From Escherichia coli (lineage in GTDB: Bacteria > Pseudomonadota > Gammaproteobacteria > Enterobacterales > Enterobacteriaceae), in NCBI RefSeq assembly GCF_029227855.1, contig NZ_CP074356.1: 64,000 nucleotides of DNA. One strand, given 5' to 3'. The first letter of the stretch is position 1. Each line of letters starts with the position of its first letter. Made by a program: the position numbers. Below are positions 49,501 to 52,500 of this stretch, piece after piece.

Positions 49501-52500
49501 GCATCATTCCAGTCACCGAAGACCGGCGGCAGGGCAACAACACCTTCACACGCATCTGCGGCTGCGGCGGCTTTTTTCTGGCCGTCACCACTGAGGTCAC
49601 GGTCAGCGGCAAGGACAATCTGACAGGCGGGGTGCTTCTGCCGGGCAAGGCTGGCCAGAGAAAGGAGGTTCACGGAAGAAAGCGCCACCATCACCGTTTC
49701 ACCGGTCAGGTGATGTACGGTAAGTGCGGTCGCGTATCCCTCCGCTATCCACAGACGTTTTCCGGCCTGATTCTGTCCTTCAAGGGTGTGACAGGTGCCC
49801 CTGACCTGTCCGCCTTTCAGGGTGCGCTTACGGCCGTCAGCACTGATTAACTGAAGGTTAACCAGTTCGCCGCTGTCGTCATACAGTGGCACCACAAGGT
49901 CACCGGCGCGCCAGCTCACGCCACCGGCTCTGTGTGTGCCGGTCAGCATCCGGCATTCCCGGCCGGGAAAGCCCTTGCGGGTCAGGTAGGCGTTACCGGT
50001 TCCGGTACGGGTTTTCGCCATCAGGGTTTGTGCCAGTGCGGCGGCGTTCTTCCGGGCAGCGTCTGTTTCAGCACCGGCGGCGGCCGTCACTGCCGGGTCA
50101 GCCGGGGGCAGGCTGCCGGTCACGGCAGCCACCTTTGCGGCCGCGTCGGACGGGGAAACACCAAACACCTTTTCAACCAGTTTCAGGCCGTCACCGGCAC
50201 CACACTGATTGCAGTACCAGGTGCCGCGCCCCTCCCTGTCATCAAAACGGAAGCGGTCACTCCCGCCACAGACCGGACAGGGCTGATGACGGTTCTTCAG
50301 CACCTGAATCCCCAGCGCCGGGAGAATACGCGGCCAGTGGCCGAGCGCATGGCTGACGGTGGCGGTTACGTTCATTTTCATGGTGTTGTTCTCCTTCAGT
50401 GCAGTACCGGCGCTTTTATGTGACGGGCACAGAGTTCATCCATCACAACCAGCCCGAGAAAGGACAGCGACGGCGCGGCCTTCAGGGGGCCGGATTCCAT
50501 TAAATCTTCCAGCAGGGCACAGGCTATCTGACGCCCTTTTTCCTCACCGTGCTGGCGCAGATAAAAGCCTTCCAGCTCAGCGGCGATGGCCGCCTCCAGT
50601 GATTCAAGGGTGAGATGCGGGTAGCGGTGCTGACGTTCGCACACGGTCAGCCAGGCACAGGCGACAGCGCGACGGTAAAGGGCAGCGCGTAAGACGGGCG
50701 GTAAGGGTGTTTTCATTTGCTTTCCTCCCTGTGACAGATGACTGCATTCCGTGCCGGTTGCATTAACTGATAAGGCATATCTGCGTCTCCTGAAGACGTG
50801 CGTATCCCTGCGCGAATACGCACATTTAATTTTTCGGGTGTCGTTTTTTAATTACAGATAATTGCGGTAACTGTTATCCGGGGTGATTTCCGGGTCAGGC
50901 TCCGTGCGGGGAATTTCCCGCCATTCCCGCGCCACCTGTGCCGCCCGGCTGACCGGAACAGGGTCCTGCGGGTAAATATCCAGATATTTCTCCCGCCATT
51001 TCTGTAATTCCGGGTCTCCGGCCATTTCTTTCAGTACCGCATGCCGGTTTACGGGGCTGCGTCTGAACAGGTCAGGACGGTCACAGGTAAATTCCCGCAG
51101 AAAACGCCCCAGCGGGATGTCTGTGGTGCGCCCGTCAGCGAGGATACGCACAAGGATACTGAATTTACGGCGGTACGGGTTCCAGACAATGTCCGGGCAG
51201 CGGTACGGCATTTCCCACGGAATACCGTCTTCCAGAATGCCGACCACGGCCACATCGGGAAAACCGGCAGAACGGTAAATCTCACCGGGCTGGGGAAAAT
51301 CAAACATGCGTCCTGTCTCCCCGGTCTTTCTGCTGGGCGAGAAAATCGCGGCACAGGCCTTTGGCTTTCAGCTCATTCAGCACAAAATCAATATCTTCAT
51401 TCAGGTAACTGAAAATATGCGGAATGTAGAGCTGATGCAGGCCGGAGAGTTCACGGTGAATCAAATCACCCCCAACAAACTGGGATACGGCGCTGGCGCG
51501 GTTGAGCTTATGGTAAGCCTCAATGCTGAGGTGTTCACGGGCGTCATGACGTGCTGAGACGGTCTGAGGGGCTTTTTTATTACGCACGGGACACCTCCAC
51601 CACCGGCAGACGGGCAGCAAGGGAGAGCACATAGTCACGGACAAGGGAACGGCGGGCACTGCGTTCATCACCGGCCACGGTGCGAAGCATACAGATACGG
51701 GGATGACGGTCTGCGCGACGGACAGCCGCAAACACAAAGACAAATTCAGGGTGTGAGGGGGTAAGGGTTGTAGCCATGATGGCAGCCTCCTGTGAATAGC
51801 AAATAACGCTATCGCCGGAGTTCTCACGCTCGATGGCGATAGCCCAGACGGGGGTGAGAATACCGGCTTCACAGGATACCGGCCAGCCCGGAGGCTGCCC
51901 CGCCTGAGCTACCATTGACTCTGCGGCATAATGAGCGGACGCGGGCAGGATGCACGGAATGCCATCTGCACGACTGACCACACACCACACCATAATCTGG
52001 CGCTCTGTGGCATTGATTGCGACACAAAAAAAGACGCGTGGCGCGTCATATGTCGCCTGTGAATTGCTCGGGTTCTCACGCCCGGCTGCCGATTTTGCGG
52101 CAGCGGAAAAACTATATCCGCAAATGCCGGAAAAAGGCAAGCCAGAAAAAGGGAGTTTTTGCAGAGCGGGCATCATCATGCGTCGTACCCCCGTTTGCGT
52201 CCGGCAATGCGTCCGGCCATCCATGCGGTGACTTCAGAGTGCAGCCAGGCCACATTTTTACCGCCAAGACTCACCTGCGGCGGAAATTCCCCCTTACGGA
52301 TGAGTTCATAGATGGTCGAGCGTGACAGGCCGCACAGGTGCATCACTTCCGGCAGACGTAAAAAACGCTCCTGCGTGATGTCCGGCAGCGGCATCAGTGG
52401 CGTCACTGGGGCGGGAGACGGGGAAGAAAAAACAGATTGCATCGGGCTACCTCGTTAATGTCCATACAGCACCGGATAAGTCCGTCCGGCTTCGGGTAGC

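Follow-up and report, generated by a model that had tools for sequence, protein, structure and literature searches.

An early left operon of the satellite phage P4 type in Escherichia coli: overlapping reading frames around an immunity RNA

Judged by its sequence, the stretch between positions 51300 and 52442 of the window (the 64,000 nt of the E. coli contig NZ_CP074356.1 that were analyzed) is a copy of the early left operon for immunity and derepression of satellite phage P4, carried by a P4-type satellite prophage. Only 10 of its 1,143 bases differed from phage P4 in a nucleotide alignment (99.1% identity), and the epsilon product matched the derepression profile PF25738 with 170 bits, so that the original prediction of a P4-type early left operon with immunity and helper derepression functions was borne out. 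A P4-type operon with CI-RNA immunity, essentially identical to that of P4, is the best explanation and very probably the correct one; nothing in the data examined contradicted it. The observation is genuine, but the locus is an ordinary, textbook one that is already known and explained.

The operon and its neighborhood

The window and P4 could be aligned in a single co-linear piece from 50380 to 52980 (2,601 nt, 97.6% identity), corresponding to P4 positions 6968 to 9568. The ten substitutions between 51300 and 52442 resulted in one amino acid change in epsilon, one in eta, and two in vis, and none of the differences in this part was located within the CI RNA or the target boxes a1, b1, a2, and b2. 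At the CG/GC swap at 52104-52105, the P4 reference is the outlier: each of the 68 relatives has the same bases as the window. The gene order vis, eta/kil, epsilon, ORF151, cnr, and alpha, all on the minus strand, was that of the P4 CDSs. The features are listed in the direction of transcription.

52176..52442, minus strand: vis (ORF88), 88 aa, AlpA-type excisionase and regulator; Phage_AlpA match, P4 ORF88
51580..52179, minus strand: eta, 199 aa, beginning with MMM; PGAP CDS with the same boundaries, frame intact in 65 of 68 loci
52111..52140, minus strand: PLE, predicted constitutive promoter inside eta; promoter scan, −35 TTGCCT, 18-nt spacer, −10 TATAGT
52027..52104, minus strand: PLE leader, seqA RNA of the isrK family; Rfam isrK and c4-a1b1
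51832..51919, minus strand: CI immunity RNA of the C4 antisense family; 88-nt match to Rfam C4, identical to P4
51786..51827, minus strand: seqC, second CI target; a2 at 51827-51821 and b2 at 51796-51789, exact complements of the CI boxes
51580..51777, minus strand: kil, 65 aa, MATTLTPSH..., C-terminal part of eta in the same frame; NF033153
51300..51587, minus strand: epsilon, 95 aa, GTG start, derepression protein for the helper (P2); PF25738 and P4 match
50852..51307, minus strand: ORF151; P4 ORF151, phrog_10748 over the full length
50396..50716, minus strand: cnr (ORF106), copy number control; Pfam DUF5375, 211 bits
48048..50381, minus strand: alpha primase-helicase, 777 aa, last gene of the operon; P4 CDS “DNA primase / alpha gene product”

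The ORFs at the P4 CDS positions had sizes of 88, 199 (with 65 nested), 95, 151, 106, and 777 aa, and the gene boundaries in RefSeq PGAP (151, 95, 199, and 88 aa) were the same as those in the P4 record and those of the ORFs read here. The vis gene, which is the first gene after the late promoter PLL, encodes a product that matched Pfam Phage_AlpA (PF05930) with 74.2 bits (gathering score 21) and differed from P4 ORF88 in two amino acids. The cnr product, encoded outside 51300-52442 but in the same operon, was identical to that of P4, and the alpha region was 98.2% identical.

Homology to P4 extended from 47702 to 55036 and included sid, delta, and psu. [quoted passage not shown] The element differs from P4 in its location in selC, its integrase, and its cargo region; the homology to P4 stops at 55036. 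A match to RsmY at 54906-55024 (20.5 bits, gathering score 57) was treated as chance. The operon segment was found in 1048 of 5426 complete E. coli genomes, about a fifth.

Roughly 70 related loci, anchored on epsilon, were compared; because these relatives are phylogenetically not independent, the locus counts given throughout overstate the number of independent events. Two loci (L074 and L076) were left out of the junction counts because their tblastn match begins at residue 8, and two others (L020 and L044) had too little upstream sequence. Three loci with epsilon-like proteins, no C4 or isrK match, and no P4-type junction (L006, L012, and L013) and one with a weak match of 33 residues (L014) were not used.

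An RNA cassette within the eta frame

The eta frame spans PLE, the seqA leader, the CI RNA, seqC, and kil. A regulatory RNA had been anticipated in this region, and the covariance search proposed with the original prediction delivered it: the CI RNA reached 74.9 bits with Rfam C4 (RF01695, gathering score 45) over the full model positions 1-87, the seqA leader 69.7 bits with isrK (RF01394, gathering score 50), and c4-a1b1 matched at seqA with 49.5 bits, also above its gathering score. The isrK match started 7 nt past the PLE −10 hexamer, an element annotated in the P4 record X02534, and thereby lies at the 5' end of the predicted PLE transcript. The seqA leader contains the target boxes a1 (52079-52073) and b1 (52063-52056) as well as a terminator-like site composed of a G+C hairpin (52047-52033) and then a U run. 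A site for the Rho-dependent terminator timm could not be pinpointed in the sequence.

The CI RNA, at a fixed distance of 245 nt upstream of the epsilon start in the relatives, carries the recognition loop b' (51875-51868, CCUGUGAA) and the box a' (51860-51854, UUCUCAC). All 459 of 459 cells of its 27 base pairs were paired in 17 distinct relatives, with three compensatory pairs, compared to 28-52% when the partner was slid. In 62 of 66 loci, seqA and seqC each contained a perfect complement of 7-9 nt to the b' loop, and the cognate duplexes were the most stable ones in every row, with −42.8 kcal/mol in the case of seqC and its cognate CI. The Shine-Dalgarno sequence of kil, AGGAGG at 51791-51786, is partly covered by box b2. 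About 10 types of b and 5 types of a boxes occurred across the loci in at least 19 a/b combinations among 66 loci, and the boxes of CI, seqA, and seqC co-varied three-way. Since the CI RNA and its targets are located inside the eta frame, the same DNA is both a noncoding RNA gene and a translated ORF. The original prediction had considered that part of this region might be noncoding RNA rather than protein-coding; the RNA was indeed there, but the “rather than” did not hold, because RNA and protein-coding frame share the eta DNA.

The kil gene, made up of the last 65 codons of eta, lies downstream of CI and is not a separate gene upstream of it; kil is the first gene that can be translated from PLE transcripts. 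Its 65-aa product matched the Icd-like NCBIfam model NF033153 with 76.1 bits (cutoff 25), on residues 146-193 of eta, and the kil ATG and Shine-Dalgarno sequence were conserved in the relatives. Diversity at codon positions 1, 2, and 3 was 0.045/0.038/0.184 in kil, which is the third-position excess of purifying selection, and 0.178/0.144/0.330 in epsilon. This shows protein-level selection on kil and epsilon. In eta codons 1-134, diversity was equal at the three codon positions in 54 distinct sequences, with all five segments upstream of kil being flat, and protein-level selection was not visible in this part. This agrees with the published view that translating eta, not the product of eta, prevents termination.

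Could eta codons 1-134 then be untranslated, with a frame open by chance or due to RNA constraints and kil as the sole gene? The flat codon positions would be explained, and the promoter and the RNA elements account fully for the sequence. The frame was nevertheless open in 65 of 68 loci, although its length varied from 183 to 199 codons, with every indel among the intact loci in frame, while the other two minus-strand frames contained 2-9 stops each in every sequence and the probability of a frame without a stop was 0.01 in shuffles; the ATGA overlap with the vis stop was conserved as well. Forti et al. in 1999 reportedly demonstrated for P4 eta such a role of staying open for translation, as nonsense codons in eta caused premature termination of PLL transcripts and suppression restored the read-through, which agrees with the summary in PMC10111431. 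Taken together, untranslated eta codons 1-134 are very improbable. The frame was disrupted in three loci (L045, L067, and L073), which may represent decay or assembly errors.

The opposite reading, that the ORF 51580-51996/52179 simply encodes a protein, the P4 immunity repressor (“cI protein,” “Ash”), and that no RNA gene exists, comes from the databases. A 137-aa “transcriptional repressor” is annotated at eta in NC_001609, phrog_6928 carries the same label, Pfam Phage_ASH (PF10554) matched eta residues 22-146 with 85.1 bits (gathering score 26), and the open frame in most loci would also fit. The Phage_ASH part, however, belongs to the codons with equal diversity, whereas kil and epsilon display the coding signature, and what is conserved in this stretch is an RNA of the C4 family that has a fully paired and compensated fold and two boxes co-varying with two target sites. 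Immunity has been assigned to an RNA in published work on P4 (PMC4825925 and PMC10111431). A protein repressor without an RNA gene is therefore highly improbable, and the legacy label “cI protein / transcriptional repressor” alone is wrong, albeit the P4 reference records and PHROGs still use “transcriptional repressor” for the ORF over the CI RNA and PGAP contains no RNA annotation at this locus.

The PF10554-matched stretch (52116-51742) coincides with PLE, seqA, CI, and seqC, and the properties of a protein domain under amino acid selection were not found for eta residues 22-146. The “Ash” part of Eta appears to be the in-frame translation of the RNA cassette, and the frame may be kept open only for the passage of ribosomes that stops termination. 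Other ORFs were rejected as genes: one of 56 aa at 51909-52079 without a Pfam match, in a minus-strand frame that has 2-9 stops in every relative, and the plus-strand ORFs 51306-51557, 51950-52231, and 52017-52325, which are antisense to supported genes.

Start/stop junctions and the GTG start of epsilon

That the small ORFs overlap at their start/stop junctions could be read directly. On the minus strand, vis and eta share 4 nt (ATGA), the vis stop being TGA at 52178-52176 and the eta start ATG at 52179-52177, with three ATG triplets in succession from 52179 to 52171; eta/kil and epsilon share 8 nt (GTGCGTAA), with the stop TAA of eta/kil at 51582-51580 and the GTG of epsilon at 51587-51585; and the epsilon stop TGA (51302-51300) overlaps the ORF151 ATG (51307-51305), also by 8 nt (ATGTTTGA). 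No overlap was present between ORF151 and cnr (135-nt gap) or between cnr and alpha (14-nt gap). Overlaps of 4 and 8 nt are common in phage operons, so these junctions are real but not unusual. The 8-nt overlap of eta and epsilon was kept in 67 of 70 evaluable related loci, ATGTTTGA at the junction of epsilon and ORF151 in 64 of 69, and an intact eta frame beginning with ATGA on the vis stop in the 65 of 68 loci mentioned above. The short overlaps are thus to be regarded as conserved, putative coupling junctions and not as accidental ones.

The original prediction had also stated that an epsilon-like ORF would need a GTG start, and this was right: the 95-aa epsilon frame does not contain any ATG codon, so a product of this length requires a non-ATG start, and P4 uses the same GTG. 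The Shine-Dalgarno sequence GGAGGT (51598-51593) is located ahead of the GTG at 51587, and an ATG in this frame occurred only further upstream, at 51668 (122 aa). Residues 1-95 matched positions 1-95 of the Pfam profile Derepression (PF25738), the full length, with 170.3 bits, and only a single amino acid differed from P4. The homologous start codon was GTG in P4 and 46 close relatives and ATG in 22 diverged relatives.

The overlaps and the GTG as mechanical artifacts of ORF calling, with the real genes starting at other ATGs and not overlapping, are about as improbable as the protein repressor: the epsilon frame is open upstream to 51872 (a 190-aa ORF) and some database entries contain longer products of 102-156 aa, but epsilon has no internal ATG, alignments with its homologues begin at residue 1 and show a conserved N terminus, the diverged relatives have their ATG at exactly this start codon with GGAGG ahead, this start is also the one chosen by PGAP and in the P4 record, and the 190-aa extension, which was rejected, is broken by stops in some relatives (L011 and L005, for example). 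The notion in the original prediction that the starts are ambiguous and the annotation provisional can be dropped, since the boundaries agree with the P4 record and PGAP and are conserved across the relatives. The alignment to the P4 region that had been proposed there gave the same gene boundaries.

Proposed mechanism and consequences for related satellites

CI processing, termination, anti-termination by translation, killing by Kil, and inactivation of the repressor by epsilon are transferred here by analogy from published P4 work, on the basis of secondary summaries (PMC10111431 and PMC4825925). In the lysogen, the constitutive PLE (52140-52111) would fire inside the eta frame, yielding an untranslated transcript that carries seqA (a1/b1), the CI RNA, and seqC (a2/b2, overlapping the kil ribosome-binding site). 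The CI RNA would be cut from this transcript and accumulate, and its two boxes would pair with seqA and seqC while the transcripts are still being made. For P4, PMC4825925 states that mature CI is processed from the operon transcript and that premature termination follows the pairing of CI with seqA and seqC. Such a pairing would block translation of kil, and since kil is not translated, transcription would end before epsilon, ORF151, cnr, and alpha, which constitutes P4 immunity. With the late promoter PLL upstream switched on, ribosomes would translate vis, re-initiate at the overlapping ATGA on eta, and continue across the RNA cassette and through kil. The act of translation would prevent termination, so that transcription reaches epsilon and the downstream genes; the ribosomes would cross the 8-nt overlaps to epsilon with its GTG start and then to ORF151, and epsilon would inactivate the repressor of the helper. 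Inactivation of the P2 repressor by epsilon is cited in PMC8628076 from Liu et al. 1997, and PMC10111431 summarizes eta, kil, CI, and the coupling to the alpA homologue.

With the P4 early left operon (X51522 / NC_001609, positions 6984-9030), the window shares gene order, boundaries, overlaps, and the epsilon GTG, and PLE, the CI RNA, and the seqA/seqC target boxes are the same base for base. The c4 RNA of phages P1 and P7 belongs to the same RNA family as CI (Rfam C4 and c4-a1b1 matches), with the same logic of two boxes and targets on both sides of the RNA gene, the downstream one over the ribosome-binding site of an Icd-like gene. In P1, with its system of a1/b1, a2/b2, icd, and ant, the downstream controlled gene is the antirepressor ant. 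Unlike P1, the controlled genes are here epsilon and the replication genes, and the cassette is located within a long ORF, eta, which is read from a second promoter. The leader matched isrK of the Salmonella Gifsy-1 system IsrK - orf45 - anrP, and seqA of P4-like phages is named as an IsrK homologue in PMC4825925, which also describes for Gifsy-1 the C4-like processed RNA STnc1160 inside an ORF with nucleotide but not amino acid conservation and AUGA coupling to the next gene. Gifsy-1 differs in that orf45 is a short upstream ORF activating the antirepressor and IsrK acts in trans in activation, not immunity (PMC4825925). In comparison to the P4-like satellites of SatelliteFinder (Moura de Sousa and Rocha, PMC8628076), homologues of psu, delta, sid, alpA (vis), epsilon, and alpha are present; the “epsilon” marker used there is PF10554, which here matches eta (51580-52179), while epsilon matches only PF25738.

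Heteroimmunity is known from phiR73. The combinations of CI boxes, shuffled independently of a nearly invariant epsilon, suggest that diversifying selection for heteroimmunity between satellites may act on them. Read jointly, that the first two-thirds of Eta is not a protein domain and that the CI-box repertoire is under such selection stands at about even chances. Both ideas, the translated cassette and the box repertoire, extend published observations, and orf45 provides a parallel for the first one (PMC4825925).

The practical value of these results is in annotation. In P4-like satellites, the CI RNA, seqA, and seqC should be placed explicitly by annotators, and eta (199 aa) should be called with the nested kil and epsilon from its GTG. 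What PF10554, an “epsilon” marker in wide use, actually picks up is eta and the RNA cassette.

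Gene junctions, identity with phage P4, and the surrounding island

The relevant genes, read directly from the window sequence, are all on the minus strand:

52176-52442, minus strand, vis/ORF88; its stop TGA shares ATGA with the eta start
51580-52179, minus strand, eta; 199 codons, starting at the first of three consecutive ATGs
51300-51587, minus strand, epsilon; 95 codons, opening at GTG 51587-51585
50852-51307, minus strand, ORF151; opening at ATG 51307-51305

GTGCGTAA contains the TAA that ends eta (51582-51580) and also supplies the GTG of epsilon, behind a Shine-Dalgarno sequence GGAGGT at 51598-51593, and ATGTTTGA holds the epsilon stop TGA together with the ORF151 ATG. 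Further down the operon there are gaps and no overlap, 135 nt between ORF151 and cnr and 14 nt between cnr and alpha. Since overlaps were read at vis/eta, eta/epsilon, and epsilon/ORF151, the original prediction of small ORFs overlapping at their start/stop junctions holds at these positions. It was also right that one ORF needs a GTG for an epsilon-like length: the epsilon frame contains no ATG codon, so only with that GTG can a 95-aa product be made, and the start codon in P4 is GTG too.

Positions 50380-52980 aligned with phage P4 (X51522/NC_001609, 6968-9568) as a single co-linear piece with 97.6% identity, and 51300-52442 differed by 10 substitutions in 1143 nt. Four substitutions in epsilon lead to one amino acid change, R36Q, the one in kil is silent, three in vis lead to two amino acid changes, and there were no differences in the CI RNA and the seqA and seqC target boxes (a1, b1, a2, b2). 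ORF106, ORF151, epsilon (95 aa), and ORF88 are annotated in the P4 record at exactly matching positions; the gene boundaries, which such an alignment might have shown to be different, correspond. The locus is the P4 locus itself and, for this reason, already known. Of 5426 complete E. coli genomes, 1048 carry the segment, and there RefSeq PGAP assigns CDSs of 151, 95, 199, and 88 aa with identical overlaps.

Compared to P4, CG and GC are swapped at 52104-52105 (P4 8692-8693), where the PLE transcript begins. On the minus strand, CG is present in the window and all 68 related loci, and GC, which costs the leader hairpin its first pair, only in the P4 reference X51522. This GC probably arose either as an inversion error in the reference, which dates from the 1980s, or as a change peculiar to the laboratory strain. 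In the interval that separates the divergent late promoters, on the upstream side of vis, about 58 nt (52574-52631) are almost wholly unlike P4 9161-9218, annotated as "ori type 2 repeats" in the P4 record, with flanks of about 98% identity; this looks, from the alignment, like a replaced segment.

An island of 11.6 kb in selC (47542-59197) constitutes the P4-type element. It is bordered by a 33-nt direct repeat (47542-47574 and 59165-59197), and tRNA-Sec (59174-59268, minus strand) has its 3' end within the second copy. The spacing of the repeat copies, 11,623 nt, differs by a single nucleotide from the length of the P4 genome (11,624 bp). The integration site of P4 itself is leuX. P4 homology is limited to 47702-55036; neither the cargo region nor the 396-aa integrase ORF (57821-59011) resembles P4. 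Two overlapping cargo genes (55077-57828, minus strand) lie in the interval bounded by the P4 cos end and the integrase. One encodes 220 aa and matches PADLOC DUF2290 (258 bits), the other encodes 698 aa and matches the PADLOC Helicase model PDLC03002 (880 bits); together they are a candidate anti-phage system, placed in a known defence hotspot of P4-like satellites. Just beyond the alpha end, a pair of 120-nt direct repeats (47703-47822 and 47883-48002) sharing 79% identity is the counterpart of crr, the cis replication region of P4, for which X05623 carries the annotation. The chromosomal flanks (45500-47540 and 59200-60000) match, in two pieces and at 99.8-99.9%, the GenBank records MG065686 and MG065691, named Campylobacter phage A18a and A11a. 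Both records appear to include chromosomal DNA of the E. coli type, perhaps through contamination or misassembly.

RNA elements and promoter within eta

The following RNA features were located:

51832-51919, minus strand, C4 antisense RNA (CI); Rfam 74.9 bits, gathering score 45
52027-52104, minus strand, isrK; Rfam 69.7 bits, gathering score 50
52065-52117, minus strand, c4-a1b1; Rfam 49.5 bits, gathering score 46.7
51875-51868, minus strand, b' box of the CI RNA, CCUGUGAA
51860-51854, minus strand, a' box of the CI RNA, UUCUCAC
52079-52073 (a1) and 52063-52056 (b1), minus strand, seqA, upstream of CI; exact complements of the CI boxes
51827-51821 (a2) and 51796-51789 (b2), minus strand, seqC, downstream of CI; exact complements of the CI boxes

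All three Rfam matches exceed the gathering score and lie within eta, and the C4 match is the regulatory, CI-like RNA that had been expected in this region. The promoter scan yielded a single sigma-70-like site, TTGCCT-18-TATAGT (52140-52111), with a −10 motif coinciding with that annotated in the old P4 record and a predicted +1 near 52104, where the isrK match begins. This site is PLE. Its leader terminates in a G+C hairpin (52047-52033) followed by a T run.

Box b2 overlaps AGGAGG (51791-51786) before an in-frame ATG at 51777, the first of the final 65 codons of eta. These codons are kil; the product matched NCBIfam "host cell division inhibitor Icd-like" with 76 bits (cutoff 25). In Pfam, vis matched Phage_AlpA, cnr DUF5375, and epsilon, over its full length, Derepression (PF25738), in agreement with the helper-derepression function anticipated for this region.

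Conservation and coding signatures in related loci

Relatives were anchored on epsilon instead of eta because circularity was to be avoided. Ten loci came from species-representative genomes and 63 from IMG/VR, with an epsilon identity of 97-99% in 46 loci and 55-73% in 22; all locus counts refer to non-independent samples. Among 70 evaluable sequences, GTG is at the epsilon start in the window, P4, and the 46 close relatives, and ATG is at exactly this codon, behind GGAGG, in 22/22 diverged relatives; the homologues align starting at residue 1. The 8-nt eta/epsilon overlap was retained in 67/70 loci, ATGTTTGA at epsilon/ORF151 in 64/69, and, in 65/68, the ATGA at vis/eta was kept together with an uninterrupted eta frame of 183-199 codons.

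Pairwise diversity at codon positions 1/2/3 (54 distinct eta sequences for the eta and kil rows; descriptive test, no fitted codon model)
eta N-terminal 25 codons: 0.162 / 0.166 / 0.151
leader (eta): 0.135 / 0.130 / 0.111
spacer (eta): 0.288 / 0.265 / 0.278
CI (eta): 0.158 / 0.152 / 0.143
seqC (eta): 0.325 / 0.363 / 0.329
kil: 0.045 / 0.038 / 0.184
epsilon: 0.178 / 0.144 / 0.330

The third-position excess expected of protein-coding sequence was present in kil and epsilon and absent from the five eta segments upstream of kil, where diversity was flat. Over eta, each of the two other frames is interrupted by stops 2-9 times in all sequences, and 134 codons in a row without a stop arose in just 1% of shuffles. 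Since the eta frame is open in 65/68 loci, the other frames are stopped, and diversity is flat, it is, judged from these sequences, the reading frame of eta codons 1-134 that is maintained and not the amino acid sequence. The Phage_ASH (PF10554) match, eta residues 22-146 (51742-52116), coincides exactly with the PLE, seqA, CI RNA, and seqC stretch, which has no codon-position bias; in the window, the true epsilon matches PF25738 only.

The CI RNA lies at a constant distance of 245 nt upstream of the epsilon start in the seven loci that derive from genomes and have a C4 match, and in most IMG/VR loci, with shifts of 1-3 nt in eight. Its fold was paired in 459/459 cells of 17 distinct sequences, with three pairs changed on both sides, compared to 28-52% paired when the partner was slid as a control. 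The recognition boxes are variable, with about 10 b types, 5 a types, and at least 19 a/b combinations in 66 loci; the window has the P4 type. Perfect 7-9 nt complements of the b' loop were present in both seqA and seqC in 62/66 loci, and cognate pairs were the most stable predicted duplexes in every row. Among the related loci (L004-L077), epsilon genes that are 97-99% identical occur together with several different box combinations, implying recombination between immunity cassette and epsilon. Locus L052 is a hybrid with a CI not matched by its own seqA boxes, and in loci L033 and L045 the b' loop CCUAUGAC has no perfect target. In five diverged relatives (L005, L007, L009, L010, L011), an additional ORF of 85-86 aa separates the ORF151-like gene from cnr, some 750-1070 nt downstream from where epsilon starts; neither the window, with its 135-nt gap (50717-50851), nor P4 contains it. 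In agreement with this, P4 is described as missing a small protein that is common in its family (PMC8628076).

Immunity model and annotation

In a lysogen, untranslated PLE transcripts would yield CI, which would pair with seqA and seqC and leave kil untranslated, and transcription would terminate ahead of epsilon and the replication genes. With the upstream late promoter PLL on, ribosomes coupled from vis would translate eta across the cassette and prevent termination, so that the downstream genes, from epsilon through ORF151 and cnr to alpha, would be transcribed and translated. The P4 literature is the basis for the presumed steps of RNA processing, Rho-dependent termination, killing by Kil, and inactivation of the repressor by epsilon. 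The same immunity and read-through model was reportedly presented by Forti et al. 1999 (J Bacteriol 181:5225). The present results fit this published model as summarised in PMC10111431 and PMC4825925.

The RNA logic is common to the P4 locus, P1/P7 c4-icd-ant, and Gifsy-1 IsrK-orf45-anrP, and in Gifsy-1 an ORF over a C4-like RNA is likewise conserved in nucleotide sequence but variable in amino acid sequence (PMC4825925). Correctable in the annotation of this family are the label "cI protein / transcriptional repressor," still found in P4 records and PHROGs, the omission of the CI RNA by PGAP, and the use of PF10554 as the profile for "epsilon" (PMC8628076), since it matches eta here and not epsilon.
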